From positions 386,203 through 450,202 of the forward strand of contig JAHJSM010000001.1 in assembly GCA_018830295.1 (NCBI GenBank): a stretch of DNA of 64,000 nt, given 5' to 3'. The notes beneath the pieces were generated by a model. That model was not told where the DNA came from. It worked only from the letters and a program-made list of their open reading frames with translations, and did not search any database. Source of the stretch: Patescibacteria group bacterium. Lineage in GTDB: Bacteria > Patescibacteriota > Minisyncoccia > Portnoybacterales > UBA2143. Shown piece after piece: positions 12,511 to 49,852 of this stretch. Within the stretch, counting starts at the first letter, position 1. Every line of letters starts with the position of its first letter. The translations under genes and the position numbers were made by a program.

Positions 12511-12774
12511 ATGCGCGATAGAAAATTTTCATATAATATTATTTTGCGCCCAGAACCAGAAGGCGGATTTACGGTGACCGTTCCTAGTTTGCCTGGGTGT
12601 GTTACTTATGGTAAGAATTTAAAAGAAGCAAAAAAAATGGCAGAAGACGCGATAAAAGGATATTTAGTCAGTTTAAAAAAACACAACGAACCAATTCCAA
12701 GCGATGAAAACGATTTTATTGGTTCTGTTGATTTGGAAATTTCAGATATAAAGCGAAATCTCGCTTGCGCTTAA
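12511..12774 (+). CDS. hicB: HicB-family antitoxin
   Basis: …FTVTVPSLPGCVTYGKNLKEAKKMAEDAIKGYL… HicB/UPF0150 fold, immediately upstream of a HicA-like ORF. Confidence 0.75.
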   Translation: MRDRKFSYNIILRPEPEGGFTVTVPSLPGCVTYGKNLKEAKKMAEDAIKGYLVSLKKHNEPIPSDENDFIGSVDLEISDIKRNLACA

Positions 12775-12776
12775 TT

Positions 12777-13004
12777 ATGTCTAAATTGCCTGTTTTGACT
12801 TCCAAGAAACTAATCAAAATTCTCAAAGAAAAAGGTTTTGAAATAGATCATTCCACGGGAAGTCATTTTATTTTTCGTCATTCGCTTAATAGCAAAATGG
12901 TCACTGTCCCATTTAAAAATAAAGATATTCCCAAGGGAACAATTATAAGCATTTTAAGGCAAGTCGGTATTTCTAAAAATGATTTAATTAAATTCAAGCG
13001 TTAA
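12777..13004 (+). CDS. hicA: HicA-family mRNA interferase toxin
   Basis: MSKLPVLTSKKLIKILKEKGFEIDHSTGSHFIFRH… YcfA/HicA motif. Its start lies 2 nt after the hicB stop. Confidence 0.75.
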   Translation: MSKLPVLTSKKLIKILKEKGFEIDHSTGSHFIFRHSLNSKMVTVPFKNKDIPKGTIISILRQVGISKNDLIKFKR

Positions 13005-13665: not shown

Positions 13666-14405
13666 TCTCCATAAAAACACCTCAAGAAATTGAAATAATG
13701 ACTCAAGCAGGCAAGATTTTGGCTGGGATTATTAGGGAATTGAAAAACAAGGTTGAACCGGGGATAACGACCAAAGAATTGGACAATCTCGCGGAGAAAC
13801 TTATTTCAAACGCCGGCGCCAAGCCGGCTTTTAAGGGCTATCGGGGCTTTCCCGCCGCTTTGTGCGCTTCAATTAACGAACAAATTGTTCACGGCGTTCC
13901 TTCTGGCAGAAAATTGGTTGAGGGAGATATTCTAAGTTTGGACTTGGGTATTCTTTACAATGATTTTTATTCCGATATGGCGGCGACAGTTCCGGTTGGC
14001 GCGATTGACCCGGAAGTTGGCCGTTTAATTAAAGCGACTAAAAAATCGCTCAAAAGAGCGATTGGCAGGGTTAAACAGGGCAAAACAATTGGCGATATCG
14101 CCCAAGCGGTCCAAAGTCACGCTGAAGGACAGGGGTTTCAAGTCGTCCGTGAACTCTGCGGACACGGCATCGGTCGCCGCCTCCACGAAGACCCGGAAAT
14201 TCCCAATTTCGGACAAAGACACAAAGGACCCGAATTAAAAGTCGGCATGGTTCTGGCGATTGAGCCAATGCTCACCATAGGAAAGCCGAAAATAAAAAAG
14301 GGCCCCGATGGCTTTGTCTACCAAACAGCCGACAACAGCATCTCCGCCCACTTCGAACATACCATTGCCGTAACAGAAAGAGGGGCGAGGGTGCTTACAG
14401 AATAA
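13662..14405 (+). CDS. map: methionine aminopeptidase type I
   Basis: Metal-ligand motifs (…DLGILYNDFYSDMA…, …CGHGIGR…HE…). Confidence 0.95.
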   Translation: MISIKTPQEIEIMTQAGKILAGIIRELKNKVEPGITTKELDNLAEKLISNAGAKPAFKGYRGFPAALCASINEQIVHGVPSGRKLVEGDILSLDLGILYNDFYSDMAATVPVGAIDPEVGRLIKATKKSLKRAIGRVKQGKTIGDIAQAVQSHAEGQGFQVVRELCGHGIGRRLHEDPEIPNFGQRHKGPELKVGMVLAIEPMLTIGKPKIKKGPDGFVYQTADNSISAHFEHTIAVTERGARVLTE

Positions 14406-14411
14406 GGTTCC

Positions 14412-14485
14412 GGGGACAGTCCCCCAGAGGGGACTGTCCCCTTGGGATTAAAATGGGGGCTGCCCCCGCAACGGGGGCAGCCCCC
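14412..14485. repeat. composite palindromic mini-element (type A pair plus type B pair)
   Basis: GGGGACAGTCCCCCAGAGGGGACTGTCCCC … GGGGGCTGCCCCCGCAACGGGGGCAGCCCCC. Confidence 0.9.
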
Positions 14486-14513
14486 ATTCATCGTCCCCAA
14501 ACATCTAAAAAAT

Positions 14514-14542
14514 TTGACAAATAACGAAAGATAACATATAAT
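14514..14542 (+). promoter_or_regulatory. perfect-consensus sigma70 promoter (TTGACA-17-TATAAT) for the cassette gene
   Basis: Exact consensus hexamers with a 17-nt spacer. Followed by a ~70-nt leader and an AAAGGAGG Shine-Dalgarno. Confidence 0.6.
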
Positions 14543-14613
14543 TTTACACAAGTAGGGTCTGCTGATTTTCAGCGGAAAATTGTATCTTAAAAATTGGATA
14601 AAGGAGGTTTGTT

Positions 14614-15330
14614 ATGACGACGAGAAAATTTGTTGTTACAGACGAACAAGAGAAGATTTTTCACAAAAGGCGGCGAGAACTGGAAAATAGGTTTTTCAAG
14701 GGTGCCTTAAATCCAGAAGATGTAAATCAAGGCTTACAGATGCTTATTGAGGGGCGAAAAGTAATAGTTTTTAAGGAGAAACCAAACATTCCGGCTTTAA
14801 TTGTTGACTGGCGAAACTTCTACAGCGAACTTGGAATTGAAGCAGATTTTTCAAACCTGCAAATTCCAAACAAGCAAAAAGGTTTTGACCATCTGATTAT
14901 CGTGGCGAAAGAAATGACACCGCAATTGCTCTACGACAAATGCGAAGAACTATTCCCCTGTTGGAAATGGACAGACAAGAATTTGGATGAAATTGTAGAA
15001 TCCGAAAGAACAGCCAAAAATGGCGCCTACGCCATTTGGGTCAGAGACAGAGTTGAAGCGGATGAAGAATTAAAAAATCTATCTGCTGACGACCTAAAAA
15101 ACAAAAACATTCCAGGCATTACTTTGGAAGAGCGACTCATTCACGAGCTCAAGTATTTCAAAGAAACTGGCAAACACTTAGATAGAGATAATGTTACTCT
15201 TTGCGCGGGTTCGCGCTATTCTGATGGCCATGTGCCGGGTGTCGACTGGTACGGTGGCAGGCTCGAGGTCGGCTGGCGCTCTCCTGACCGTCGCGGTGGC
15301 TTTTTGCGCGCTCGTCGGGCAGTTTCTTAA
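14614..15330 (+). CDS. hypothetical protein (238 aa), a repeat-flanked cassette gene replacing the infA…rplQ block
   Basis: Strong Shine-Dalgarno and ATG. No domain I can recognise. The last ~100 nt are conspicuously GC-rich compared with the rest of the window. Confidence 0.5.
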   Translation: MTTRKFVVTDEQEKIFHKRRRELENRFFKGALNPEDVNQGLQMLIEGRKVIVFKEKPNIPALIVDWRNFYSELGIEADFSNLQIPNKQKGFDHLIIVAKEMTPQLLYDKCEELFPCWKWTDKNLDEIVESERTAKNGAYAIWVRDRVEADEELKNLSADDLKNKNIPGITLEERLIHELKYFKETGKHLDRDNVTLCAGSRYSDGHVPGVDWYGGRLEVGWRSPDRRGGFLRARRAVS

Positions 15331-15372
15331 CCTTGTACCTTTTATCTTTTAACCTTTTCAAAAACAAAAAAA

Positions 15373-15404
15373 GCCGCTCTTTATAAAGAAGAGTGGCTTT
15401 TTTT
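15373..15404 (+). terminator. rho-independent terminator
   Basis: GCCGCTCTT-TATAAAG-AAGAGTGGC hairpin followed by TTTTTTT. Confidence 0.7.
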
Positions 15405-15409
15405 ATTCC

Positions 15410-15465
15410 GGGGACTGTCCCCTTGGGATTAAAACGGGGGCTGCCCCCGCAACGGGGGCAGCCCC
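15410..15465. repeat. composite palindromic mini-element, right flank of the cassette
   Basis: GGGGACTGTCCCCTTGGGATTAAAACGGGGGCTGCCCCCGCAACGGGGGCAGCCCCC. Near-identical to the left-flank copy, including the TTGGGATTAAAA linker. Confidence 0.9.
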
Positions 15466-15481
15466 CAAACCCTGCCTTAAA

Positions 15482-17257
15482 CTACTTCTTCCCCTCAATC
15501 TCTTCCCTCATTTTCTCAATAAACTTCCCAACTTCCATCGCGCCGAGATTGCCTTTTTGTCTTTGGCGGGGGGCGATGGTTTTTGATTTTTCTTCTTTTT
15601 CGCCGACGATAAGGAGGTAGGGGATTTTTTGCGTTTCGCCTGCGCGAATTTTTTTGCCAAGCGTTTCGTCGCTCTCGTCAATTTCAACGCGGATATTTTC
15701 TTTCTTTAATTGTTTGGCGACCTCCTTGGCGTATTTGTTGAATTTCTCGCTGATGGGGATAATTCGCGCTTGGACGGGAGCGAGCCAAACAGGGAAGGCG
15801 CCCGCAAAATGTTCAATCAATAACGCTAAAAATCTCTCATAAGACCCAAGGATGGCGCGATGAACCATAACGGGGTTTACTTCTCTGCCTTTCTCGTCGA
15901 TATAAGTCAAATCAAAGCGTTTGGGCGTGGCAAAATCCAACTGAACGGTCGGAATTTGTATTTCTTTGCCCAATGAATCCTTGAACATAAAATCAAGTTT
16001 TGGCCCATATAAAGCGGCTTCACCTTCCATCCTTTTTGCGTCTAATTTCATTTCGTCGGCGACTTCAGCCAAGATTTTTTCACATTTATCCCAATCCTTT
16101 GAATCTCCTATATATTTTTCGGGGTGGTCATAGTCCCTTAACGACAAAGACACCCAATGGTTCTCCCAAAGACCCAAGGCGGTATAGAATTCTTTAATAA
16201 TATTGACCATATTTTTAATTTCATCTTTAACTTGGTCAATTTTACAAAAAGAATGTCCGTCTTCAACTGTAATCGCGTAAACTCTATTTAAGCCACCGAC
16301 TTCCCCCGTTTTTTCGGCTCGGTATTGTTTCTCTGATTCCATATATCTGATCGGTAAATCGCGATAAGACCTTGTCCTTGAAGCGTAAATCTGCGTTTGA
16401 TGAGGGCATTGAACCGGCTTCATGGCGAATTTATGTCCTTTTTCCGAAGTGACATGAAAAAGTTCTTCGCTGAATTTTTTGGCGTGTCCCGAAAGTTCAA
16501 ATAATTCTATTTTGGCCAAATGAGGAGTCATTACTTTTTCAAAACCGTAATTTCTACAAACCGATTCAATATGTTTTTTTAATTCGTCAATTATAATTAC
16601 CCCCTTAGGCGTGAATAAAGGCAATCCTGGACCAACCAAATCGGAAAAAACAAATAAATCTAATTCTTTGCCTAATTTTCGATGGTCTCTCTTTTTCGCT
16701 TCTTCCACCATCGCTTGATATTCGTCCAATTCTTTTTTGCTTTCAAAGGCGATGCCGTAAATCCGCGTCAGCATTTTATTTTTTTCGTCGCCTCTCCAAT
16801 AAGCGCCGGCGATTTTCGTTAATTTAAAAGTGTCTAATTTAATTTCTTTAGTTGAAGAAACATGAGGGCCAAGACAAAGGTCAGTGAAGTCGCCGGTCTT
16901 GTAGATAGTGACCTTTTCTAAATCTTGAATCAATTCCACCTTATACGGCTGTTTTAATTTTTTGAATAATTTAATTGCTTCTTCAGCGTTTAATTCTTCT
17001 TTTTCAAATTTTACGCCTCTTTGAATTAGTCCTCTCATCGCTTTTTCTATCTTAGGCAGGTCATCAGGGGACAGTCCCTGCTTTGCGGGGACTGTCCCCG
17101 TAAAATCTGTCCCCGTAAAATCTATATCATAATAAAATCCGTTTTCAATAATTGGACCAATGCCAAACTTCGCCTCCGGATAAAGTTTTTGAACAGCCGC
17201 GGCGAGAATATGAGCCAAAGAATGGCGAATGATTTCAATTTTTAGTAGTTTAAACAT
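15482..17257 (-). CDS. thrS: threonyl-tRNA synthetase carrying an in-frame palindromic-element insertion
   Basis: Class II motifs and the editing-domain HxxxH. The repeat at 17067-17099 is translated as …DFTGTDFTGTVPAKQG…. Confidence 0.9.
   Translation of the reverse strand: MFKLLKIEIIRHSLAHILAAAVQKLYPEAKFGIGPIIENGFYYDIDFTGTDFTGTVPAKQGLSPDDLPKIEKAMRGLIQRGVKFEKEELNAEEAIKLFKKLKQPYKVELIQDLEKVTIYKTGDFTDLCLGPHVSSTKEIKLDTFKLTKIAGAYWRGDEKNKMLTRIYGIAFESKKELDEYQAMVEEAKKRDHRKLGKELDLFVFSDLVGPGLPLFTPKGVIIIDELKKHIESVCRNYGFEKVMTPHLAKIELFELSGHAKKFSEELFHVTSEKGHKFAMKPVQCPHQTQIYASRTRSYRDLPIRYMESEKQYRAEKTGEVGGLNRVYAITVEDGHSFCKIDQVKDEIKNMVNIIKEFYTALGLWENHWVSLSLRDYDHPEKYIGDSKDWDKCEKILAEVADEMKLDAKRMEGEAALYGPKLDFMFKDSLGKEIQIPTVQLDFATPKRFDLTYIDEKGREVNPVMVHRAILGSYERFLALLIEHFAGAFPVWLAPVQARIIPISEKFNKYAKEVAKQLKKENIRVEIDESDETLGKKIRAGETQKIPYLLIVGEKEEKSKTIAPRQRQKGNLGAMEVGKFIEKMREEIEGKK
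17067..17099. repeat. type A palindromic element inside thrS
   Basis: GGGGACAGTCCCTGCTTTGCGGGGACTGTCCCC, followed by two copies of CCCGTAAAATC. Confidence 0.85.
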
Positions 17258-17260
17258 AAT

Positions 17261-20200
17261 TTACTCTATTACTTTAACACTATCGCAAAGTATCTTCAAG
17301 TCGTCGTTTCGGTCGCTTAGACGACCTCCAAGAAGGACAATCGTCTCTTCTTGCCAGATATCGGGGTTTTTCGCAAGGACGCTTGGGAAAACCAACGCTT
17401 CTATTCGTCCAGTCATATCCTCAATTTCAACAAAAAGCATCGGTTGTCCTGTTCGCGTATTAATTCTTTTAATACGGTTAATAATACCTCCGACTTTAAT
17501 TCTAGTGCCAGCGTGGTTTTTGGAAATACTCTGGCATTTTATAGTTTTTCCCGCCAATTGTTTTTGATACGCTTTAAGGGGGTGTTCGGAAATATACAAA
17601 CCGAGCAGTTCTTTTTCCCAACCAAGCAGTTCTTTTTTTTCCGCGGGAGGGGCGGACGGCAATTTGAAAGACGGCGCGACCATTGGTTGGTCGCTAAACA
17701 AACTGATTTGTCCGTTCGCTTTGTTTTTTTGCGATTCGCGCGCCAAATTTAACATCATTTCAACAGCGTTCAAAAGTTGATTTCTTTCTCCAAAGGCGTC
17801 AAACGCGCCGCATTTAACCAAACTTTCCAGCGATTTCTTATTAAGGTCTTTTGAATTAACTCTTTCCAAGAAATCGGTGATTGATTTGAAGGCGCCGTTT
17901 GTTTTTCTTTCTTCAACAATAGCATGAACGACATTATCACCCACATTTTTGACCGCTTTTAAACCAAACCTAATGATTCTATCTCCCGCCTTGGTGAAAT
18001 CGTGGTTACTTTCATTAATGTCAGGAGGTAAAACTTTGACGCCTATTTGGTTACATTCATCAACCAAAAAAGAAATTCTTTCAATATCGTTTTGGTCGGA
18101 GGTCATGACGGCCGCCATAAATTCGGTTGGGTAGTGGGCTTTAAGATAGGCGGTTTGGTAGCCGATTAGGGCGTAGCAAGTCGCATGGGCGGCGTTAAAT
18201 CCATAGCCAGCGAACGGTTCTACCATCTGCCAGACCTTTTCGGCGATTTGACGGCTGATATTATTCTTAATCATTCCGTCAATCATTTTCTTCGCTTGCT
18301 CGTCCAAAAGTTTCTTAATTTTCTTTCCAACCGCTTTGCGAAGCGTATCCGCCTCAGCCGGAGTAAAAAGCGACAAATCGCGCGCGATTCTCATCAACTG
18401 TTCTTGATATACGCAATTGTGTACAATAATGTTGTTGGCAATAAAATTATGTGTTCCTTCCACTTCTAAATCATAAACATTTTCTTTTCCTTTACGCCGA
18501 ATAGAAGCAATGTCTTCCCATCTCGCATGTTTGTTTTGGCATAGATTTATTAATTCTTTATCTTTAAGGAAATAAGCGATTTTATTCGCTACTTGCAAAT
18601 TTAAGCGATTTTTTATTTTTCCTTCTTTGCCAAAAAATCCCTTTCGACTTATCTTCAAAATATTTGAGAGAGATCGTTGCGAAATGGAATATTTTTTTTG
18701 ATATTCAATAATTTTTTTAAGAAACGGTTTTCTCGGAACAAATTCCTTGCAATCTTCTATTGGTCGCTTTAAATATTCAGCAAGTCGTTTTTTCTTATCA
18801 GTTATCATTAGATGGCCTATTTGATTATAGAATTCTCGCAAATTGTAAATAATTATCCGATAAGATTGTATCATCTCATCGCGCTGGTTTTTATATTTTT
18901 CCACTCTGTAGATATGACTGTTGATGCCTAATTTTAATAAAAGAGTTTGGAGATCGTAAATAATTCTTTTGGAAATCGCGGTTAGATAGGCGGATTTTAG
19001 CGATATCCCGCCATCGCAGTCCCAAAAAGTCGCTAAAAACGCCGCGATACATTGATTATCTAATTCAAAGACAAATTTTGGTATAAATTTGTCAACTGAC
19101 TTTTTGCCGCCTTTTTTATCTTTCAACCCCAACTCTCTCATCCATTCCAACAAACTATTAGGTTGATGGTATTTGGTGGTAATTTTCTTTGATGGATTGG
19201 CGCGCTTGACGCCTCTAATATGTTCGCTGAATGTGATTTTTAGATTATCAAAGGCGTTAGCGCGTTTTTTGAAATCGTTTAATATTTTTTCGTCTTTATT
19301 AACTAAATAGCACGAATTATGGTTTGACAGAGCGCCGTCGGCGATTAAATATGCCAAAACCTTGAGTTTGTCTTCGTTGAATTTCTTTATTCCGGAAAAA
19401 AGTTTTTTAGGGGTCATGATAAAGTCGCCCTTTTCCAGATTTTTTAATTTTTTCCATCCATCCGGAGTTAAAAATTCATGGTCGGCAGTAGCTTTGATTT
19501 GTTTTCCTGTTCGCAATCGAATTTCATAAACATTTTTTATCCCGTTAATAAATTTATTAATAATTTTCTTTTTGACGAAAGATTTTCCGTTCCATGATTG
19601 AACATAAAGTTGCTTAGAAGAACCAATCGCTTCGTCTATGCGCAATATTCCGCCAGGATTTGCTTCTTGGACAAAAGAGTCGCCAGTAACACAAACGCCG
19701 TAAGTGTTTTTTAGGATTGGTTCAAGGAGTGGGTGGATGTATCTGACTTCTTTTAGTCCATGCTTGCGGGCGATGAAGTCGGGGATAAATTCCATTGGAC
19801 CGGGGCGGTAAAGCGCGACCATAGCGACAATATCCTCAAATTGGGTTGGCTTTAATTCTCTTAAATATCTCTTCATTCCGTTTGATTCCAATTGGAAGAC
19901 GCCAGTCGTGTTTGCTTCCTGAAAGACCTTGAATGTTTCTTCGTCGTCCATGGGGATATTAGCCAAATCAATATCTTTTCCGATTAATTCTTTAATTTGT
20001 CGAAGCGCGTTTTGAATAATCGTCAAAGTTTTTAACCCGAGAAAATCCATTTTTAAGAGGCCTAATTGTTCAATCGCGTGCATTTCATATTGTGTCACGA
20101 TCGTTTGGTCATCTTTGCCGGAGCGTTGGCAGGGAACCATATCATCAAGCGGTTCTTTCGTAATCACAACCCCGGCAGCGTGGGTTGAGGCGTGGCGGAC

Positions 20201-21697
20201 AACCCCTTCAAGTTTCATCGCCATATCAATCAGCCGTTTAATTTGCGGGTCTGACTCGTACGCTTTGTGAAGTTCTTGCGATTCATAAACGGCCTCTTTG
20301 AGCGACAAGCCAAAGGGAACCATTTTCGCCGTTTGGTCGCAAACGATGTAAGGGTAATCAAGGGCGCGTCCGACATCGCGGATAGAGCCGCGCGCCGCCA
20401 TCGTCCCAAAAGTAATAATTTGGGCGACATGGTTTTGCCCATATTTTTTCGCGACATATTCAATGACTTCGTTGCGGCGGTCGTCGGCGAAATCCAAGTC
20501 AATATCAGGCATTGAAACGCGCTCGGGATTTAAAAACCGTTCAAAAAGCAAATTGTATTTAAGCGGGTCAATTTCTGTAATGCCAAGCAAAAAGGCGATA
20601 AGCGAGCCCGCGGCTGAACCCCTGCCTGGGCCGACTCCGATTCCTTGCTCCTTCGCCCAGTCCACGAAATCACAGACGATCAGGAAATATGAAGCAAAAC
20701 CCATTTTGTTGATGATTTTCAATTCGTAATCAAGCCGTTCTATAATCTCTTTGCTTGTTCCGTCCGGATAGCGGGTCTTCAATTCTTGGCGGCAAGTTTT
20801 TTCCAAAACGCCGTCGGGCGTTTCTCCTTTGGGAACTTCAAAAGAGGGGAGTTGAATTGTATCAAGGACAAATCCAAAATCGCACTGCTGGACAATTTTT
20901 TGGGTATTAGAAATCGCGTCAGGCGTGTCTTTGAAATCCGCGACCATTCGCTCAATCGGCCGCAAGGAAAAATCGTTTTCTTTCATAGAGAGACGGTTTC
21001 CATCGTCCATTTTCTTGTCCATTTGGATGCTCATCAAAACATCCTGCGCTTCGGCGTCTTCGGGTTTGATATAGTGAACATCGTTCGTCGCGACCAAGGG
21101 GATATTGTTTTTTCGCGCGATTTTAATTATTCCATCGTTGGCGATTCTTTGTTCAGGTAAATCAGGATGGTTTTGGATTTCTAAATAGAAATTGCCCGCG
21201 CCAAATATTTCCTGATATTCAAGCGCCAATTTTTCCGCCTCGTCCAAGTGGCCGTTGATAATTGTCCGAGGAATTTCTCCGACAATACAGGCGGAAAGGG
21301 CGATTAACCCTTTGCTATGTTTTTTAAGAAGTTCTTTGTCAACGCGCGGCTTGTAATAGAAGCCCTCTAAATACGCTTTGGTCGTCAGTTTAACTAAATT
21401 GCGATAGCCCTCTTCGTTTTTAACCAACAAAACCAAGTGATACGATTTATTATCAATATTCGGCCTTTTTTGGAACATTCCATTGGGCGCAATATACATT
21501 TCGTTTCCTAAAATTGGACGAATTCCTCTCTTTTTCGCTTCCCGATAAAATTCAACCAGCCCATACATAGAGCCATGGTCGGTTAAAGCGATAGAAGGCA
21601 TCTTCAACTCCTGACACATATCCAACAAAGGCCCGATTTTAGCGAGCCCGTCCAAAAGAGAATAGTGCGAGTGAACATGAAGATGAGTGAAGGACAT
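17261..21697 (-). CDS. dnaE: DNA polymerase III alpha subunit interrupted by an intein
   Basis: PHP domain (HLHVHSHYSLLDG) and pol III alpha core. A 426-aa intein sits between …KNTYGV and CVYQEQLMRIA…, the conserved TYG(I/V)-[C/L]YQEQ site. Confidence 0.9.
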   Translation of the reverse strand: MSFTHLHVHSHYSLLDGLAKIGPLLDMCQELKMPSIALTDHGSMYGLVEFYREAKKRGIRPILGNEMYIAPNGMFQKRPNIDNKSYHLVLLVKNEEGYRNLVKLTTKAYLEGFYYKPRVDKELLKKHSKGLIALSACIVGEIPRTIINGHLDEAEKLALEYQEIFGAGNFYLEIQNHPDLPEQRIANDGIIKIARKNNIPLVATNDVHYIKPEDAEAQDVLMSIQMDKKMDDGNRLSMKENDFSLRPIERMVADFKDTPDAISNTQKIVQQCDFGFVLDTIQLPSFEVPKGETPDGVLEKTCRQELKTRYPDGTSKEIIERLDYELKIINKMGFASYFLIVCDFVDWAKEQGIGVGPGRGSAAGSLIAFLLGITEIDPLKYNLLFERFLNPERVSMPDIDLDFADDRRNEVIEYVAKKYGQNHVAQIITFGTMAARGSIRDVGRALDYPYIVCDQTAKMVPFGLSLKEAVYESQELHKAYESDPQIKRLIDMAMKLEGVVRHASTHAAGVVITKEPLDDMVPCQRSGKDDQTIVTQYEMHAIEQLGLLKMDFLGLKTLTIIQNALRQIKELIGKDIDLANIPMDDEETFKVFQEANTTGVFQLESNGMKRYLRELKPTQFEDIVAMVALYRPGPMEFIPDFIARKHGLKEVRYIHPLLEPILKNTYGVCVTGDSFVQEANPGGILRIDEAIGSSKQLYVQSWNGKSFVKKKIINKFINGIKNVYEIRLRTGKQIKATADHEFLTPDGWKKLKNLEKGDFIMTPKKLFSGIKKFNEDKLKVLAYLIADGALSNHNSCYLVNKDEKILNDFKKRANAFDNLKITFSEHIRGVKRANPSKKITTKYHQPNSLLEWMRELGLKDKKGGKKSVDKFIPKFVFELDNQCIAAFLATFWDCDGGISLKSAYLTAISKRIIYDLQTLLLKLGINSHIYRVEKYKNQRDEMIQSYRIIIYNLREFYNQIGHLMITDKKKRLAEYLKRPIEDCKEFVPRKPFLKKIIEYQKKYSISQRSLSNILKISRKGFFGKEGKIKNRLNLQVANKIAYFLKDKELINLCQNKHARWEDIASIRRKGKENVYDLEVEGTHNFIANNIIVHNCVYQEQLMRIARDLSLFTPAEADTLRKAVGKKIKKLLDEQAKKMIDGMIKNNISRQIAEKVWQMVEPFAGYGFNAAHATCYALIGYQTAYLKAHYPTEFMAAVMTSDQNDIERISFLVDECNQIGVKVLPPDINESNHDFTKAGDRIIRFGLKAVKNVGDNVVHAIVEERKTNGAFKSITDFLERVNSKDLNKKSLESLVKCGAFDAFGERNQLLNAVEMMLNLARESQKNKANGQISLFSDQPMVAPSFKLPSAPPAEKKELLGWEKELLGLYISEHPLKAYQKQLAGKTIKCQSISKNHAGTRIKVGGIINRIKRINTRTGQPMLFVEIEDMTGRIEALVFPSVLAKNPDIWQEETIVLLGGRLSDRNDDLKILCDSVKVIE
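18416..19693 (-). mobile_element. DnaE intein with a LAGLIDADG homing-endonuclease domain
   Basis: Starts CVTGDS… and ends …IVHN, followed by C+1. Internal LAYLIADG and FWDCDGG dodecapeptide motifs. Confidence 0.75.
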
Positions 21698-21773
21698 AAA
21701 ATTAGTATACCACCTCCACCCCCTCCCGCAAAGATTGACATTTCTTGAAAAATGGTTGTTTGGGGACTGAATT

Positions 21774-21853
21774 AAAAAGGTCAGACCTTTCAAAACGACA
21801 TTCTCGCGACTGCTTATTATTTAGTGACAAACTAATGGAAAGGTCTGACCTTT
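21774..21853. promoter_or_regulatory. two copies of the 15-bp palindrome AAAGGTCWGACCTTT in the divergent dnaE/ligA control region
   Basis: AAAGGTCAGACCTTT at ~21776-21790 and AAAGGTCTGACCTTT at ~21839-21853. The first copy extends as AAAGGTCAGACCTTTCAAAACGACATTCTCGCGAC. Confidence 0.5.
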
Positions 21854-24290: not shown

Positions 24291-25735
24291 ATCTCAATCA
24301 ACTTACAATTAAAGAAGCTCATCAAGGCCTTTTGAAGAAGGAATTTTCTTCGGTGGAACTGACCGAGGCGGTTTTGGGGCAGATTAAAAGGCGTAATCAA
24401 GAAATTAACGCCTATTTGGTCTTGACCGAAGAAATGGCGTTGACGCAAGCCAAAAAGGTGGACAAAATGATTGCTAATAACGAAGAAATTGGTCTTTTGG
24501 CGGGCATTCCTGCCGCGATTAAGGATAATATCATGATTGACGGCGTTCAGTGTACGGCCGCCTCAAAAATTTTGGAAAATTACATCGCGCCTTATGACGC
24601 GACAGTTATTAAAAAACTTAAAAAACAAGGCGCGGTTTTTGTTGGCAAAACAAATTTGGATGAATTCGCGATGGGGTCTTCAACCGAGAATTCGGCGTTT
24701 GGTCCGACTAAAAATCCGCGCGATTTGAGTCGTGTTCCAGGCGGAAGTTCGGGCGGGTCCGCGGCGGCTGTCGCCGATGACCAGTGTATTTACGCGTTGG
24801 GTTCTGACACAGGCGGTTCTATCCGCCAGCCAGCTTCTTTTTGCGGGGTGGCCGGATTAAAGCCGACTTATGGCTCGGTTTCTCGTTATGGGCTCATCGC
24901 TTTCGCTTCTTCTTTGGACCAAATCGGACCGCTCGCGAAAACGACCGAGGATTGTCAGATTATTTTTGAGGCGATTAATGGTAGAGACGAAATGGACGCG
25001 ACGAGTTTTAATTTCGGAAACCAAGTTTCCGCCGGAAACTCGGTTTCCAATCTTAAGATAGGAATTCCTAAGGAATATTTTGTGGCGGGGATTGACTCGG
25101 CAGTGGAGGAGGCGGTGAGGGGGGCAATTTCTCAATACGAGAAAATGGGATTTGAAATTGTGGAAATAAGTTTGCCTCACACCGAATACGCCTTGCCCGT
25201 TTACTATATTATTATGCCCGCCGAAGCGTCTTCTAATTTAGCCCGTTATGATGGAATTAAATACGGGCTTTCGGAAATTGACAAAGATTTATTGGGTGGA
25301 TACTTAAAAACGCGACAAAAGGGATTTGGCGATGAAGTCAAAAGAAGAATTATGCTCGGGACTTATGTTTTGTCGGCTGGCTATTACGACGCTTATTATC
25401 TTAAAGCGCAAAAAGTGAGAACTTTAATTAAGAACGACTTCTTGAAGGCGTTTGAAAAAGTAGATGTTTTAATCACGCCGACCGCGCCCACGCCCGCTTT
25501 CAAAATCGGGCAGAAAATAGCCGACCCTGTTTCAATGTATCTTTCGGATATTTACACAATTTCCGCGAACTTAGCTGGTTTACCCGCTATCTCTATTCCT
25601 ATTAAAAGCAACAGTCCTTTGCCGATAGGCATGCAAATTATAGGTAAACAATTTGGAGAAAATGATATTTTTAAAATAGCGCGCGCTTATGAGAATTTGG
25701 GGACAGTCCCCGCAACAGGGACTGTCCCCAAATAA
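24287..25735 (+). CDS. gatA: Asp/Glu-tRNA amidotransferase subunit A, C-terminus encoded by a palindromic element
   Basis: Amidase signature GGSSGGSAAAVA. The last residues …LGTVPATGTVPK come from the repeat at 25698-25729. Confidence 0.9.
25698..25729. repeat. type A palindromic element at the gatA 3' end
   Basis: GGGGACAGTCCCCGCAACAGGGACTGTCCCC. Confidence 0.85.
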
Positions 25736-26275: not shown

Positions 26276-26278
26276 ATG

Positions 26279-26352
26279 CGGGAGCGACCGGGCTCGAACC
26301 GGCGACCTTCTGCGTGACAAGCAGATGCTCTAACCAACTGAGCTACGCCCCC
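26279..26352 (-). tRNA. tRNA-Asp (GUC)
   Basis: Cloverleaf read from the minus strand: GGGGGCG acceptor, D-arm GCUCAGUUGGUUAGAGC, anticodon loop UUGUCAC, T-arm GGUUCGAGCC. CCA is not encoded. Confidence 0.9.
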
Positions 26353-26382
26353 ATTGTTTTAGACCCTTCGCAGGTTCTAAAG

Positions 26383-26454
26383 TAGCAGGAGTGGGGATCG
26401 AACCCACCATAGGTCGCTTATGAGACGACCTCAGACACCAGTCTGCTTCCTGCC
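26383..26454 (-). tRNA. tRNA with a CAU anticodon (elongator Met or Ile2-like) and an atypical anticodon arm
   Basis: Acceptor GGCAGGA/UCCUGCU, T-arm GUGGGUUCGAUCCCCAC. Nine nt separate the 5-bp anticodon stem halves (UCUCAUAAG). That implies a sixth U·G pair with a CUCAUAA loop, or an expanded loop. Confidence 0.65.
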
Positions 26455-26482
26455 TCGGGTGGGTTTTAAATTAATAACCTTG

Positions 26483-26789
26483 TTGCGGGGGCAGGATTCG
26501 AACCTGCAACCTCAAGGTTCTTTGCGATTTCTATTTATAGAAGAAATCTGTATTAGCCATTTGTTTCCAAATGGAATGGACTATCCCATCATCTTTTTGC
26601 CTAAAAAAGATGTTCCCATTATAGTCTCTGAACCTTCCCTAATATGTATTAGGGCTTGGCTGCCGATTGCCGAGGGTTATATAACCCTGACGGTTTTCCA
26701 GCAATTTCGGGAATTTTCCACAAGATGTCGCCATCCTGCGCCACAATTTTATTTATGGGCCTCGCGAGCTGCCATTGCTCCACCCCGCG
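26483..26789 (-). tRNA. initiator tRNA-fMet (CAU) interrupted by a putative group I intron in the anticodon loop
   Basis: Exon 1 (26755-26789) is CGCGGGGUGGAGCAAUGGCAGCUCGCGAGGCCCAU. Exon 2 (26483-26519) is AACCUUGAGGUUGCAGGUUCGAAUCCUGCCCCCGCAA. The first 14 nt and the 3' strand CCCCGCA-A match E. coli tRNAfMet, including the C1·A72 mismatch. Confidence 0.75.
26520..26754 (-). other. putative 235-nt group I intron inside the tRNA-fMet gene
   Basis: 5' exon ends in U and can pair with an intron GUGG guide (a U·G P1). The intron ends in G. It contains a CAGAGACUAUAAUGGG stretch with the P7-region 'AGACUA' hallmark. No ORF. Confidence 0.6.
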
Positions 26790-26794
26790 TTGCT

Positions 26795-26823
26795 ATTATA
26801 GGGGATAATTTGTTTGATAGCAA
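26795..26823 (-). promoter_or_regulatory. promoter (TTGCTA-17-TATAAT) driving the tRNA-fMet/intron gene
   Basis: The -10 box lies 6-7 nt upstream of the mature tRNA 5' end on the minus strand. Confidence 0.55.
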
Positions 26824-26886
26824 GTTTTTTATGTCCACTTGCCCCAAAAGGTGAGAAGTGGTAAAATACACCCAATACAATAGGGT

Positions 26887-28256: not shown

Positions 28257-30238
28257 TGAAGGTCTCATACAATTGGCTACAATCTTTTTTTGATAAAAAA
28301 CTTCCCAGTCCGGAAAAACTGGCGGATTTGCTGTCTTCGCATTCCTTTGAAACAGAGGTGATTGAACGGGTGGGTAGTGATTACGCTTTGGATGTGGATG
28401 TTTTGCCGAACCGGGCGCATGATTGCCTTGGGCATTTAGGTGTCGCGCGGGAAATTGGGGCGATCATAAATTCAAAACTCAAAATTCAAAACTCGCGCCG
28501 TCGCCAAAGCGGCTATGGCGCGTCGGCGACAAAATTAAAAATCAAAACGCAAAACAAAGATATTAAAGATTTTCTTAAAATTAAAGTCGGTGATAAAAAA
28601 CTTTGTCCGCGTTATACAGCTCGGATGGTGGTTGATGTTAAGGTTGGTCCTTCGCCAGAATGGATTCAAGAACGGCTCAAAGTTTGTGGTTTAAAGCCGA
28701 TTAACAACATCGTGGACACCGTTAATTATGTTATGTTGGAAACAGGACAGCCCATGCACGCTTTTGATTTTGACAAAATAGCGGGTGAGCCAAAAACTCT
28801 CATTATCCGCCGAGCCAAAAAGGGAGAGAAGATCATTTCTTTAGATAACGAAACATACGAATTAGACGAAAATATTTTAGTGATTGCGGACGAGAAGAGC
28901 CCTCTTTGTATTGCCGGCATGAAGGGCGGGAAGGACGCGGAAATTGATAAGGAGACAAAAAGAATTGTTTTGGAGGCAGCTAATTTTGATTCGCGAATTA
29001 TTCGGAAGGCGTTTAATCAATTAAAATTAAGAACGGACGCTTCGTGGCGTTTTGAAAACGGGCTTGACCCAAATTTAACCTCATCGGCGATGGATATGGC
29101 GGTTGCTTTAATTGATGGACAAATTCTTAAAGGAGTTGTTGATATTTATCCGAACAAAGTTAAGCCGAAGACGATAAAATTGGACGCGAAAAAAGTCAGG
29201 AGTTTGTTAGGAGTTAATATTTCAGATAAAGAAATAATTGCTATTTTGAAAAAGTTAAGTTTCGTTAAGATAGGGACAGTCCCTCTGAAAGAGGGACTGT
29301 CCCTATCAGTCACCGTTCCGACGGCCCGTTTGGACATTTCTATCCAAGAGGATTTAATTGAGGAGGTTGGACGTCTTTATGGATTTGAAAAAATTCCAAG
29401 CCGTTTGCCTTTGGCCGCTCTCATCCCTCCCAAGCGAAATGATGATTTGATTTACCAGAATAAAATTAAAGATATTTTAGTTAATCTTGGTTTTAGCGAG
29501 GCGCTTAATTATTCATTGATTGGCGACGCGGAAATTGAATTAGCCAATCCAATTAGCCAGGAGCAGAAATATTTGCGTCCTTCTTTAGCGCTTAATTTAT
29601 TAAAAAACATTGAAAGCAATAAAAGATATTTTAATGAAGTGAGGTTATTTGAAATTGGTCGGGTTTTTGAAAGGGATAACGACAAGGTAATTGAAAAGAA
29701 AAAATTGGGCGCCGCTTTGTTCCCATCTGACTTTTATCGCCTCAAAGGAATTATTGAGACATTATTGAATAAAATGCAAATTAGCGATGTTTGGTATGAG
29801 GATGAATTAGAAAGAGATGATTTAAAGAGAGCGAAAGTGATAGTGGGAAATGATTTATTAGGTTGGATTGGAGACAATATTTTCGAACTTGATTTTGAAA
29901 AAATAGTTGAATTGGCGACAGAAGAAAGAATTTATTCGCCTCCTTCAAAATATCCAGCCGTGGTCAGAGATGTCGCTTTGTTGGTTGAGCCGGGAACAAA
30001 GATAGTTGAAGTGATGAATTTAATTAATACAGCGGGCGGTTCGTTAATCAGCGATGTTGATTTGTTTGATATGTACGAAGGAGAGGAAATCCCAGATGGC
30101 AAAAAAAGTTTGGCTTTCCGCGTTATTTATCAAGCGGACGACCACACCTTAACCGACAAAGAAGTCAACGCCTTACAGGAGAAAGTTATGAAAGCGTTGG
30201 AAGATGAAGGAGGGTGGGAAGTGCGGAAACAGAAATAG
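28256..30238 (+). CDS. pheT: phenylalanyl-tRNA synthetase beta subunit, short form, with an in-frame palindromic-element insertion
   Basis: B3/4 and B5 domains, and the FDxY anticodon-binding C-terminus. The repeat at 29274-29304 is translated as …IGTVPLKEGLSLSVTVP…. Confidence 0.9.
   Translation: MKVSYNWLQSFFDKKLPSPEKLADLLSSHSFETEVIERVGSDYALDVDVLPNRAHDCLGHLGVAREIGAIINSKLKIQNSRRRQSGYGASATKLKIKTQNKDIKDFLKIKVGDKKLCPRYTARMVVDVKVGPSPEWIQERLKVCGLKPINNIVDTVNYVMLETGQPMHAFDFDKIAGEPKTLIIRRAKKGEKIISLDNETYELDENILVIADEKSPLCIAGMKGGKDAEIDKETKRIVLEAANFDSRIIRKAFNQLKLRTDASWRFENGLDPNLTSSAMDMAVALIDGQILKGVVDIYPNKVKPKTIKLDAKKVRSLLGVNISDKEIIAILKKLSFVKIGTVPLKEGLSLSVTVPTARLDISIQEDLIEEVGRLYGFEKIPSRLPLAALIPPKRNDDLIYQNKIKDILVNLGFSEALNYSLIGDAEIELANPISQEQKYLRPSLALNLLKNIESNKRYFNEVRLFEIGRVFERDNDKVIEKKKLGAALFPSDFYRLKGIIETLLNKMQISDVWYEDELERDDLKRAKVIVGNDLLGWIGDNIFELDFEKIVELATEERIYSPPSKYPAVVRDVALLVEPGTKIVEVMNLINTAGGSLISDVDLFDMYEGEEIPDGKKSLAFRVIYQADDHTLTDKEVNALQEKVMKALEDEGGWEVRKQK
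29274..29304. repeat. type A palindromic element inside pheT
   Basis: GGGACAGTCCCTCTGAAAGAGGGACTGTCCC. Confidence 0.85.
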
Positions 30239-30240
30239 TT

Positions 30241-33200
30241 ATGGTTAAAAAAAATAATAACAATTCAAATTACCAAGCAAAAGACATTTATGTCTTAGAA
30301 GGGCTTGATCCCGTGCGGCGGCGTCCAGGGATGTATATCGGTTCAACTGGTATTGAAGGTGTTCATCACCTTATTTGGGAAGTGGTTGACAACGCTTTAG
30401 ATGAAGCGATGGCTGGTTTTTGCGACGAAATAGAGGTTGTTCTTTTACCTGATAATAGGGTCAAAGTAACGGACAATGGGCGAGGGATTCCAGTTGACAA
30501 GCATCCGCAGACGAAAAAGTCGGCCTTGGAAACAGTCATGTGCACTCTTCACGCGGGCGGCAAATTCGGCGGGGAGTCATATAAAATCGCAGGCGGGTTG
30601 CACGGAGTCGGTGTTTCAGTTGTGAACGCGCTTTCCGTGATGACGCGGGCGGAAGTTTGCCGCGATGGTTTTTTATATGTTCAGGAATATGAACGGGGCA
30701 AGCCCAAAAAAGATGTTAAAAAAGAAGGCAAATGCGGCAGAAACGGAACGACGATCATTTTTGAACCAGACAAAGAAATTTTTCCAAAAATTGAATTTAA
30801 GTGGTCTAAGATATTAAAGCGATTGCGGCAGCAGGCGTATTTAACCAAGGGGATTAAAATAGTCGTCAAAGACGAAAGAAAAGAGCCGCGCAAAAGTTAT
30901 TCTTTCTATTTTGAGGGCGGAATTGTTTCTTATATTGGATATTTAAATCGCGGCGAAGAAACAAAACATAGTAATATTTTTTATGTTTCCGCGGAAAAGC
31001 AGGATGTGATGGTAGAGGCGGCTTTTCAATACACAGACGATATTCAAGGATATGAAGAAAGTTTTGCTAATAATATTTATACGGGCGAGGGCGGAATGCA
31101 TTTAACTGGCTTCAAAACGGCTTTAACAAGAACGCTTAACGATTACGCGCGGAAGAATGGTTTTTTAAAAGAGTCAGATGAAAATTTAAGCGGCGATGAT
31201 GTGAGAGAAGGGCTGACGGCGGTGATAAGCGTTAAATTAAGAGAGCCGCAATTTGAAGGGCAGACCAAGGCGAAGTTGGGCAATACCGAGGCGCGGACGG
31301 CGACTGACGCGATTGTTTCAGACGCGTTGGAAGAATTTTTAGAAAAGCATCCCCAAGATGCAAAGGAGATTATGGCGAAATGTCTCTTGGCGGCAAAAGC
31401 GCGCCGAGCGGCTAAAGCGGCGCGAGAAACGGTCATCCGAAAGGGCGTTTTGGAAGGCATGGCTTTGCCAGGGAAATTAGCCGACTGCTCCAATCGCAAC
31501 CCCGAAGATTCAGAAATCTACATAGTGGAAGGCGATTCCGCCGGAGGTTGTTTCGACGGAAAAACCAAAATTGCTTTAACTGATGGACGAAATTTAGATT
31601 TTATAGAATTAATTAAGGAGCAGAAAAGAGGAGAAAAGAATTATTGTTATACAATCAAAAAAGATGGCTTGATTGGTATTGAGCAAATTAGAAATGTCAG
31701 AAAAACAAAAAAGAACGCGGAGGTTATTAAAGTAATTCTTGATAACAACGAGGAAATTATTTGCACGCCCGACCACAAGTTTATGACAAGGGATGGTAAA
31801 TACAAACAAATAAAAGATTTAACTAATAAAGATTCTTTAATGCCGCTTTACAGAAAACTTTCTAAAAAAGAGAAGCGAATTACTATTGAAGGATATGAAA
31901 TGGTTTTAAGCCCAGAATTAAAAGACGGAAAGGAAAGATGGATTTTTACCCATCTTTTGGCTGATGAATATAATTTAAGAAATAAAATATATTCCAATAA
32001 AATCAATGTTCATAAGCATCATATTGATTTTAATAAATTAAATAATAATCCAGATAACATTAAGCAGATGGATAAAGATGAACACCTAAAACATCATTGT
32101 CGGATGTTGGAATTTACTATTCATCGAGAGGATGTAAAAGATAAAGTAAGAAAGATACATCAAACGACAGAATTTAGAGAAAAAATTAGAGCGACGATGA
32201 CTACTCCAGAAATGAAAAAAATGCTTAGTCGGAGAGCAAAAAAACAATGGCAAAATAAGGAATATAAGCAGTATATGGTTGAAAAGTTTTTGGAGTTTTA
32301 TAACAATTCACCTGATTACAGGGAAAAGAATAATAAATTATTGAATGATGTTCAAAAGAAGTATTGGGGCGATAAATCAAATCGACTCAAACAGGCGAGA
32401 CGCGTCAGAAAATATTTTAAATCAAATCCAGAGAAAAAAGAAGAACTTTCTTTGCTTGCCAAAAAGCAATGGTTAGACGCGGAGATGTTAACTTGGCGAA
32501 GTCAAAAAACAAAAGAGCAATGGACGGATGAATTTAGAAAAAAGCGGCAAAAGGCGTATAGCAAGACCTATTATAGACACACGATAGAATTTCTAAAAAA
32601 GGTCTATGAGAAATATGGTTCTTTTCGTGAATATGATTACGAAAGAACATTGATTAGAAATAATAATCTTTTGAAGTTCAATACTTTTTGCGCTCGGTTT
32701 TTTAACGGCGACAAAGAAGCGGTTTATGAGGCGGTGAAAAACTATAATCATAAAATCAAAAGGATAATTAAACTTAGAAAAAAAATTGATGTTTATGATT
32801 TGGAGGTTAAAGGGACCCATAATTTTGCTTTGGCTTCCGGCGTTTTTGTCCATAACAGCGCCAAACAGGGGAGGGATAGGTCTTTTCAGGCGATTTTGCC
32901 TTTGCGAGGGAAAATTCTTAATGTGGAAAAGGCGCGGTTGAGTCGAGCGCTTACTTCAACTGAAATTAAAACGCTTGTGATCGCGCTGGGGGCGGCGATT
33001 GCCGAGGAATTTGATATTGAAAAATTGCGATACCACCGCATTATTATTATGACGGACGCCGATGTGGACGGCTCGCATATCGCCACTTTGCTTTTGACTT
33101 TGTTCTTCCGATATTTCCCGCAAATTATAGACCGCGGTTATTTGTATGTCGCTCAACCGCCCCTTTATCGCCTGCAGAAAGGAAAAAGGGTTGAATATTG

Positions 33201-33468
33201 CTATACAATTGAAGACAGAGATGAAATTGTTTCTTCAATGGGCAATGAGGGCGTTAATATCCAACGATACAAGGGTTTGGGAGAAATGAATCCAAGCCAA
33301 TTATGGGAAACAACGATGGATCCCGCCAATCGGGTTATGAAACAAATTATGGTTGAAGACGCCAAAGAAGCGGACAAGATTTTTGATATTCTAATGGGAG
33401 ATGAAGTCGCGCCCAGAAAGAAATTTATCCAAACCCACGCGAAGAAAGCGAAAAATTTGGATATTTAA
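30241..33468 (+). CDS. gyrB: DNA gyrase subunit B interrupted by an intein
   Basis: GHKL ATPase, transducer and TOPRIM domains. A 436-aa intein splits EGDSAGG | SAKQGRDR. Confidence 0.9.
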   Translation: MVKKNNNNSNYQAKDIYVLEGLDPVRRRPGMYIGSTGIEGVHHLIWEVVDNALDEAMAGFCDEIEVVLLPDNRVKVTDNGRGIPVDKHPQTKKSALETVMCTLHAGGKFGGESYKIAGGLHGVGVSVVNALSVMTRAEVCRDGFLYVQEYERGKPKKDVKKEGKCGRNGTTIIFEPDKEIFPKIEFKWSKILKRLRQQAYLTKGIKIVVKDERKEPRKSYSFYFEGGIVSYIGYLNRGEETKHSNIFYVSAEKQDVMVEAAFQYTDDIQGYEESFANNIYTGEGGMHLTGFKTALTRTLNDYARKNGFLKESDENLSGDDVREGLTAVISVKLREPQFEGQTKAKLGNTEARTATDAIVSDALEEFLEKHPQDAKEIMAKCLLAAKARRAAKAARETVIRKGVLEGMALPGKLADCSNRNPEDSEIYIVEGDSAGGCFDGKTKIALTDGRNLDFIELIKEQKRGEKNYCYTIKKDGLIGIEQIRNVRKTKKNAEVIKVILDNNEEIICTPDHKFMTRDGKYKQIKDLTNKDSLMPLYRKLSKKEKRITIEGYEMVLSPELKDGKERWIFTHLLADEYNLRNKIYSNKINVHKHHIDFNKLNNNPDNIKQMDKDEHLKHHCRMLEFTIHREDVKDKVRKIHQTTEFREKIRATMTTPEMKKMLSRRAKKQWQNKEYKQYMVEKFLEFYNNSPDYREKNNKLLNDVQKKYWGDKSNRLKQARRVRKYFKSNPEKKEELSLLAKKQWLDAEMLTWRSQKTKEQWTDEFRKKRQKAYSKTYYRHTIEFLKKVYEKYGSFREYDYERTLIRNNNLLKFNTFCARFFNGDKEAVYEAVKNYNHKIKRIIKLRKKIDVYDLEVKGTHNFALASGVFVHNSAKQGRDRSFQAILPLRGKILNVEKARLSRALTSTEIKTLVIALGAAIAEEFDIEKLRYHRIIIMTDADVDGSHIATLLLTLFFRYFPQIIDRGYLYVAQPPLYRLQKGKRVEYCYTIEDRDEIVSSMGNEGVNIQRYKGLGEMNPSQLWETTMDPANRVMKQIMVEDAKEADKIFDILMGDEVAPRKKFIQTHAKKAKNLDI
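31549..32856 (+). mobile_element. GyrB intein with an HNH-type homing endonuclease
   Basis: Starts CFDGKTKIALTDG and ends …FVHN, followed by S+1. Internal HKHHIDFNKLNNNPDNIKQMDKDEHLKHH (HNH motif). Confidence 0.8.
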
Positions 33469-49381: not shown

Positions 49382-49412
49382 GGGGGCTGCCCCCGCGGCG
49401 GGGGCAGCCCCC
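49382..49412. repeat. type B palindromic element
   Basis: GGGGGCTGCCCCCGCGGCGGGGGCAGCCCCC, upstream of rnpB. Confidence 0.9.
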
Positions 49413-49460: not shown

Positions 49461-49852
49461 GACCCGAGCAAATTAGATAGTCGCCTCGCAATTTTGTGGG
49501 GAGGAAAGTCCGGGCGTCGCAAATGGCAGCGGGTAATACCCGCCGGTCGCGAGATTAGGGAAAGCGCCACAGAGACAATATTTCTTTGGTTTTGGGGCAA
49601 TCTCCAAAACTGGGGTAAAGGTGAAAAGTGAGGGATTAAGACCCCTCTCTCCGCAGGGAGACCTGTCGGAGTGGCAAGCCCTGCCTGACGCAAGAGCAAA
49701 CCATTCCGCAATATTGCGGGATGATGAAAAGTAGCTCGCTTGAGGTTAGCGGCAACGCTAACCCTAGATAGATGACTATCCAAGACCCTCCGTCGCCCTT
49801 TGGGCTATGGCGGGTGAGACAGAACCCGGCTTATTATTTGCTCGGGTTTTTG
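49461..49852 (+). ncRNA. rnpB: RNase P RNA (bacterial type A-like)
   Basis: P1 pairing CCCGAGCAAAU / AUUUGCUCGGG. P4 strands GGAAAGUCCGGGC and ACAGAACCCGGCUUA. GGUAAAGGUGAAA motif. U-tract at the 3' end. Confidence 0.85.

Follow-up and report, generated by a model that had tools for sequence, protein, structure and literature searches.

The clade of diversity-generating retroelements (DGRs) that is confined to the candidate phyla radiation (CPR) was reportedly first surveyed by Paul et al. in 2017. DGR clade 2 is CPR-restricted and abundant in these bacteria, its targets have no recognizable domains, and CPR DGR targets in general carry no export signal (PMC8144416). Remote DGR targets exist in several bacteria and are missed by standard scans, which look in the proximity of the reverse transcriptase (RT) (PMC8144416). 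Here we analyse a 64,000-nt (64-kb) stretch of a 744,622-bp contig of a Patescibacteria group bacterium (hereafter the window) and, within it, an open reading frame (ORF) of 238 codons that follows map at 14614–15330 on the + strand. Its product is identical to NCBI KKG85_01530 (assembly GCA_018820055.1), which is annotated as "hypothetical protein". An earlier sequence-only reading of the window had regarded the gene as a repeat-bounded mobile cassette. Our analysis leads elsewhere: the ORF probably encodes a variable (target) protein of the DGR clade restricted to CPR/Patescibacteria, served in trans now or until very recently.

The protein family and the GC-rich gene tail

The 238-aa protein yielded nothing meaningful in Pfam, NCBIfam, PHROGs, PADLOC or a sequence profile search of the PDB. 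It nevertheless belongs to a large family with >1000 homologues, all of them from CPR-type metagenomic bins, which we surveyed through 80 loci taken from GTDB species-representative genomes (loci are referred to below by handles beginning with L, proteins by handles beginning with P). An RT gene, usually together with avd, lies within ~2 kb in 34 of the 80 family loci. At ~30 loci the last ~120 nt of the gene are matched by a template repeat (TR) located 250–300 nt downstream, and the mismatches between the two copies fall all, or nearly all, at TR adenines (28/28 in L079, 25/25 in L056, 22/22 in L045, 18/22 in L003 and 20/20 in a further locus). Three proteins, P0008, P0011 and P0014, are 59–63% identical to the window protein over the full length, and each of their genes is followed by a TR, avd and an RVT_1 gene (loci L003, L008, L088). 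For P0011 (60% identity), the genes next in order downstream encode bAvd and a reverse transcriptase of the RVT_1 family; a second copy of the last 123 nt of the P0011 gene, 82% identical, lies 405 nt downstream and has an adenine at 18 of the 22 mismatched positions. A single cassette serves two adjacent targets in L038 and in L059. Targeting also occurs at a distance, since the variable region (VR) of L015, on one contig, matches the TR of L018, on another contig of the same metagenome-assembled genome (MAG), with 23 of 25 mismatches at TR adenines. The members of this family are bona fide DGR variable proteins, remote targets included.

The complete cassettes (9017–10550 in L003, as well as L008, L088 and ~30 others) share one layout, with the target on the + strand, a hairpin, the TR on the + strand, avd on the opposite strand, and the RT gene again on the + strand; the 5' ends of avd and the RT gene overlap by ~40 nt. 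A truncated and degenerate family member of 119 aa with a VR-like tail adjoins an rRNA operon in L004 (4552–4911). In the MAG of this locus there are also five or more full-length paralogues, none of which has an RT gene within 10 kb.

The window protein is divided as follows (window coordinates, strand, feature):
14614–14805, +, N-terminal helical module, codons 1–64, variable over the family and apparently swappable
14806–15204, +, conserved core resembling C-type lectins and formylglycine-generating enzyme (FGE), codons 65–197
15205–15327, +, putative DGR variable region, codons 198–238, GC-rich and adenine-poor

In the family alignment the N-terminal ~64 residues vary, the core is strongly conserved from W66, and the C-terminal ~40 residues consist of an invariant scaffold (VP, W, L, V, LR.R..VS) interleaved with positions that accept any residue. 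The 238-aa ORF with a GC-rich 3' end, as described in the sequence-only reading, is confirmed: GC content is 0.67 at 15200–15299 and 0.37–0.44 in the remainder of the gene. The VR is also poor in adenine, with 7.3% A versus 36.9% in the remaining gene. That reading had suggested that the frame runs into foreign or repeat-derived DNA. Its second alternative is apt, as a DGR variable region would be copied from a template repeat; the first is not, because the tail is coding sequence conserved over the family. It is homologous to the VRs of the ~30 loci that have cognate template repeats.

We compared the VR and the core of the window gene with those of its closest relatives. Relative to L001, whose protein is 74% identical, codons 206–231 have 16 changes at codon positions 1 and 2 and a single change at position 3, versus 35 and 47 changes in the core. 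Expressed per third position, this is 1/26 for the VR versus 47/133 for the core (P-value = 8e–4). Faithful copying of non-adenine template bases predicts such a synonymous deficit; positive selection does not. A second relative, L092, represents the same locus in a closely related genome, as judged from the same terminator, an identical right-hand composite palindrome and thrS downstream. Its core differs from that of the window gene at 10/399 nt (2.5%) and its VR at 26/123 nt (21%), and 21 of the 26 VR differences are at codon positions 1 or 2 (VR versus core, P-value = 1.6e–10). From this contrast we infer that one lineage, or each of the two, has been diversified very recently. Where the three VRs differ from one another, the L003 TR tends to have an adenine (odds ratio 10.4, P-value = 1.7e–7). 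Once adenines are restored at the variable sites, the predicted TR reads ACGAGTTCGAGCTATTCTGATGGCAATGTGCCGAATGTCAACTGGTACAATGGCAAGCTCAAGGTCAACTGGCACTATCCTGACCATCGCAATGACAATTTG..., encoding ...NVPNVNWYNGKLKVNWHYPDHRNDNL..., and aligns over its full length (~121 nt) with real TRs at 71–79% identity. The L100 locus, which comes from another sample and has the gene in an unrelated context (NUDIX-gene-transglutaminase), has a core with 85% identity and a VR in which the scaffold is the same and the variable codons differ; no TR is present on this short contig. Judging by these comparisons, the GC-rich tail at 15205–15327 is a DGR variable region.

Hypervariability could in theory be reached with no retroelement, through positive selection or paralogue gene conversion acting on a surface loop. 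Such an explanation would accommodate the non-synonymous excess in codons 198–238, it can draw on the existence of multi-copy paralogue families (for example, five copies in MAG STA_35), and the N-terminal swap described below is itself recombination between copies. It is, however, scarcely credible in view of the near absence of synonymous change in the VR and the match between variable sites and template adenines, it leaves the adenine depletion of the VR unexplained, and the homologues with their adenine-specific TR/VR pairs stand against it. Pure positive selection was rejected: third positions of the VR are nearly unchanged, variable sites track template adenines, and the VR is depleted of adenine.

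If the window gene is diversified in the way shown for its homologues, RT and Avd would copy a TR RNA of ~120 nt into cDNA with misincorporation opposite template adenines, and the cDNA would then replace the VR at 15205–15327. Codons whose template reads AAY, GAY, AAG or similar would be randomized at positions 1 and 2, and non-adenine template bases would be copied faithfully. This mechanism would account for a tail that is GC-rich and contains only 7% A. About 20 codons would be randomized on a fixed lectin-fold scaffold, and the expected outcome is a fast-changing ligand-binding face on a constant scaffold.

The sequence-only reading had proposed structure prediction as a check on the 238-aa protein. 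AlphaFold2, supplied with an alignment of 89 sequences, produced a model with a predicted local distance difference test score (pLDDT) of 91.3, and in this model the protein has the C-type-lectin/FGE fold, like TvpA and Mtd. A Foldseek search against the PDB returned no significant match for the 238-aa protein. Neither a signal peptide nor a transmembrane segment is present. The N-terminal module has a distribution of its own: L092, at the same locus, has a wholly different promoter region and N-terminal module (window 14614–14805 versus L092 95–232), and identity to the window gene resumes exactly at codons 65/66 (GACTGG). At least three types of N-terminal module recur over the family. This pattern suggests that the modules are shuffled between paralogues.

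A retroelement for the window copy

Several results weigh against assigning the window gene to an active DGR. No RT or Avd was found in the window by tblastn with the RT and Avd of L003 (E ≤ 5), and no TR either, as blastn of the VR against the window matched only itself. Contigs of closely related strains extend the view by ~8 kb further upstream and ~3 kb further downstream, and RT, Avd and TR are absent from these extensions as well. A degenerate 54-mer that allows the VR base or A had 0 matches in metagenome, genome and viral contig collections, and a 48-mer of the predicted TR had 0 matches in metagenome contigs; these pattern searches are uninformative, because the window's own VR, hence the source genome, is itself absent from those collections. 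The source contig contributes none of the 120 best relatives of the L088 RT, and among these best 120 matches all RTs ≥67% identical to it come from other contigs. This is mild evidence that the RT clade accompanying the most similar targets, as it seems, is absent from the 744,622-bp contig. Finally, the difference between the VRs of the window gene and L092 could in principle come from recombination with the VR of a paralogue, which is conceivable because the N-terminal module has evidently been exchanged in that way.

The window contains no second family member (E ≤ 5). As it contains no RT, Avd or TR, the gene either is targeted in trans by a distant DGR or lost its DGR very recently. The stand-alone gene would thus be served by a DGR at another place in the genome, or would have been so until very recently. 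Family members are found directly after map in other CPR lineages too, in L069 (1–2989), where the order is map-target-TR-avd-RT, and in L055 (8587–10540). The arrangement in the window could have descended from a complete cassette at the map site.

The retroelement might instead have been lost from this genome, in which case the gene would be a fossil or orphan target with a frozen, ordinarily evolving VR, and the protein a lectin-fold binder of fixed specificity. This would fit the lack of RT, Avd and TR in 64 kb and in the ~11 kb of extension, as well as the fact that the 744-kb contig supplies none of the 120 RTs most closely related to a family RT. Degenerate TR-like remnants without an RT do occur, in L029 and L026, where mismatches are not adenine-specific, and from an order like that of L069 the RT part could have been lost here. 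On the other hand, a VR that is 21% divergent from its L092 orthologue next to a core that is 2.5% divergent implies very recent diversification, so that recent activity is to be preferred. The window copy has kept the 3' spacer and hairpin typical of the family (see below), and remote targets on other contigs are demonstrated within the family (L015/L018). Moreover, the search for RT and TR directly covered ~10% of the source genome, and searches reached <10% of the 744-kb contig. Overall, we regard a fossil target with a frozen VR as rather improbable and favour a target that is, or very recently was, diversified in trans.

Expression signals, repeats and genomic setting

Around the coding sequence we find the following features (window coordinates, strand, feature):
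14406–14490, unstranded, left composite palindromic element, hairpin A + linker + hairpin B
14514–14542, +, sigma-70-type promoter TTGACA-17-TATAAT, 12/12 matches
14558–14576, +, hairpin CTGCTGA ttt TCAGCGG in the 5' untranslated region (5'-UTR), kept in L001
14601–14608, +, Shine-Dalgarno sequence AAAGGAGG, 5 nt ahead of the ATG
15328–15362, +, stop codon and pyrimidine-rich spacer CCTTGTACCTTTTATCTTTTAACCTTTTC, built of ~8-nt units CTTGTAMC / CTTTTAAC
15363–15407, unstranded, intrinsic terminator hairpin, bidirectional and common to the convergent thrS, kept in L001 and L092
15406–15467, unstranded, right composite palindromic element, half of hairpin A + the same linker + full hairpin B
17067–17099, 25699–25729, 38962–38974, 54907–54937, 55483–55515 and 61095–61129, in-frame palindromes

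With a promoter, a ribosome-binding site and a terminator to itself, the gene forms an autonomous transcription unit, and in this the sequence-only reading, which had pointed to a consensus promoter, a Shine-Dalgarno sequence and an intrinsic terminator, was right. The promoter is the sole perfect TTGACA-17-TATAAT site within 14000–16000, and L001 keeps its –35 box, which there overlaps with the end of map. The 5'-UTR hairpin shows a compensatory change (C-G to T-A) in L001; its folds are weak (z = –1.6 and –2.1), and a search for known RNAs gave no Rfam match in the region. A block around the Shine-Dalgarno sequence, AAAGGAGGTTTGTYATGACGAC, is invariant across five family members. The terminator has a 17-bp stem (15366–15404) with an A-run on its 5' side and a T-run on its 3' side (–22 kcal/mol, z = –5.95), and it is the counterpart of the hairpin found after the VR in all family members. 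Expression of the gene is likely to be high and constitutive.

In family genes the pyrimidine-rich spacer is followed by a strong hairpin. The motif CTTGTA is found ≤60 nt from the stop codon in 35 of 88 family genes versus 0.8% of background windows. A run of 29 nt of the window spacer is identical to L090 (10684–10730), which has an unrelated genomic context and a protein only 64% identical; the spacer is also found in L100 (1463–1500), L004, L008, L010, L025 and others, and it is absent from the closest relatives, L001 and L092. The VR end carries the conserved ...CGTCGGGCAGTTTC, and the CTTGTA-type spacer and hairpin are present in the window copy as well. By analogy with phage BPP-1, this 3' element, comprising the VR end, spacer and hairpin, may be a cis-acting, IMH-like DGR homing signal or an RNA signal. 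A more specific scenario would have the gene as a strongly and constitutively expressed trans-target of a DGR >50 kb away, with the 3' element (~30-nt spacer and hairpin, 15331–15407) as a portable homing signal for dispersed copies and with N-terminal modules exchanged at codons 65/66; we offer it tentatively, as a possibility that we would not bet on. If it is true, an "address" domain is shuffled in CPR cells in the manner of cassettes, and the binding site is in addition hypermutated by a retroelement.

The near-identical composite palindromes seen earlier on both flanks are confirmed by a shared 58-nt direct repeat (14429–14486 and 15410–15467, 98% identity), which includes the linker TTGGGATTAAAA. 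In the left element, hairpin A (14412–14441, GGGGACAGTCCCC/GGGGACTGTCCCC) is followed by this linker and by hairpin B (14452–14488, GGGGGCTGCCCCC/GGGGGCAGCCCCC), and the whole folds with –72.7 kcal/mol (z = –8.3). Inserted after the map stop codon and ahead of the promoter, this element is specific to the lineage and absent at the L001 site. Hairpin A is complete in the left copy and reduced to one arm in the right one; an identical copy of the right element is found at the same place in L092, and none in L001.

The palindrome arms are strongly overrepresented in the window: GGGGACWGTCCCC has 16 matches versus 0.01 expected and GGGGGCWGCCCCC has 31 on both strands versus 0.02 expected. They form 14 clusters across the 64 kb. 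Eight of these are intergenic, a few nucleotides past stop codons, including both sides of the RNase P RNA gene, and six lie in frame within long ORFs (thrS, gatA at its 3' end, and three further ones), where they translate to motifs such as GTVP, GLSP and GAAP. In ThrS the palindrome at 17067–17099 accounts exactly for 11 inserted residues that the L001 orthologue lacks. Type-B palindromes (49382–49412 and 49875–49957) also bracket the gene for RNase P RNA (~49465–49848; Rfam RF00010, 220 bits), so double flanking is not unique to the ORF. The A-linker-B composite is confined, in the window, to the two flanks of the ORF, and the simplest guess is that one spacer was locally copied or converted from the other. 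Among the 92 loci compared, the palindromes are restricted to the source genome, the closely related L092 and, for one type, L039. They are a lineage-specific dispersed family, similar to repetitive extragenic palindromic (REP) sequences and bacterial interspersed mosaic elements (BIMEs). We suggest that they invaded both intergenic spacers when the gene was already in place and played no part in its origin.

These observations bear directly on the cassette proposed in the sequence-only reading, a promoter-ORF-terminator unit, mobilized or recently acquired. On this view, recombination or transposition through the flanking 58-nt repeats would have inserted the unit and displaced the infA...rplQ block. 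The unit is indeed bracketed by a direct repeat of 98% identity, the composite with the TTGGGATTAAAA linker occurs at these two window sites only, and the locus does recombine, as an exchange in L092 has affected the promoter and the 5' part of the gene. Yet L001 has the same gene order, secY-adk-map-gene-thrS(–), with palindromes on neither side of the gene, and keeps its –35 box, ribosome-binding site and terminator; the spacers on either side of the gene measure 98 and 64 nt in L001 versus 208 and 151 nt in the window. L001 thus presents the very situation that the sequence-only reading had named as contrary to its proposal, the same gene at this position in a relative and no flanking repeats. 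The gene is at the same position also in L092, L006, L097 and L098. An empty site with a single repeat copy, which the same reading had suggested looking for, was not seen among contigs with an identical Map protein, all of which bear the gene or break at the repeat. In addition, the palindromes are dispersed (six of the 14 clusters being within ORFs) and lineage-specific, no transposase or integrase ORF adjoins the unit, there is no target-site duplication logic, the breakpoint of the L092 exchange lies at codons 65/66 and not at the repeats, and outside the VR the GC content and codon composition of the gene agree with those of the genome. A mobile cassette is therefore very improbable, and a DGR target that was already in place when palindromes entered its flanks is the reading we retain.

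Upstream of the ORF are the S10-spc ribosomal cluster, secY, hicBA, adk and map; downstream are the convergent thrS(–) and dnaE(–). Homologues of InfA, S13, S11, S4, RpoA and L17 were not found by tblastn in the whole 64-kb window, in agreement with the earlier statement that infA, rpsM, rpsK, rpsD, rpoA and rplQ, expected after map, are missing. That the gene "replaces" this block does not follow: the operon break is common to L001, and adjacency of map and a family gene recurs in L055 and L069.

Other elements were seen in the same stretch. The hicB/hicA toxin-antitoxin pair (12511–13004, between secY and adk) is present in the source strain group (L095–L099) and not in L001, and is a lineage-specific insertion in the ribosomal superoperon. 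A group I intron (Rfam RF00028, 87.7 bits) at 26557–26764 (–) adjoins tRNA-Met (26382–26454) and tRNA-Asp (26278–26352); the 144-aa ORF that overlaps it (26420–26854) is probably spurious. DnaE (17261–21793, –) and GyrB (30214–33468, +) each contain one intein with a homing-endonuclease-like insert.

Comparison with known systems

The results make >1000 unannotated CPR proteins without a Pfam model recognizable as one class of DGR variable proteins, which has a lectin fold and is defined by core, VR and 3' signal. What this locus adds is modest: a stand-alone copy documented in a housekeeping cluster, far from any RT, where RT-proximal surveys miss targets, and modular N-terminal domain exchange at a fixed junction. 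CPR bacteria live attached to host cells and have tiny genomes, and recognition of hosts or phages is a role for which hypervariable binding proteins are prime candidates. The strong autonomous expression predicted at a conserved locus provides a handle for metatranscriptomic and population studies.

With respect to the flanking repeats, the window palindromes resemble REP sequences and BIMEs (PMC2817692, PMC3733652) in being short, GC-rich hairpins, highly repeated and placed mostly just past stop codons, and in being joined as a mosaic (A-linker-B). They differ in their ends, which read TTCC/GGGG... and have no GTAG or CGTC tag, and in their host, a CPR bacterium; a REP-associated tyrosine transposase (RAYT) was not evident among the window ORFs, although no search aimed at RAYT was made. 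Like Rickettsia palindromic elements (PMC1779305), some of them sit in frame inside essential genes, but the window units are far shorter (~30 nt).

DGR variable proteins of known structure include TvpA of Treponema denticola (PDB 2y3c), Mtd of Bordetella phage BPP-1 (1yu0) and TaqVP of Thermus aquaticus (5vf4). Their sequence identity to the 238-aa protein is only 11–14%, and the domain of the window protein is much smaller, with a different and interchangeable helical N-terminal module. Mtd forms the tip of a phage tail fibre and TvpA is a lipoprotein, whereas the 238-aa protein has no export signal. The BPP-1 cassette also differs in layout, its co-oriented avd-TR-RT order being unlike the order of the family cassettes, in which avd is opposed.

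The closest match is with clade 2 targets (Roux et al. 2021, PMC8144416). The window gene shares with them a patescibacterial host, small size, the lack of a signal peptide, transmembrane segment and Pfam domain, a VR in the last ~40 codons, and homologues with TR, avd, RT and adenine-specific mutagenesis. It differs in having no retroelement in at least 64 kb, in closing a ribosomal-protein/secY/adk/map cluster and in having a consensus promoter of its own. This copy would not be reported by surveys that demand a VR ≤1 kb from the RT. As in described remote DGR targets, the VR-bearing gene lies far from RT and TR; within the family L015/L018 is a demonstrated inter-contig case, whereas for the window copy we infer trans targeting from the features described above. 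The locus does not represent a new kind of system, since CPR DGRs and remote targets have both been described already.

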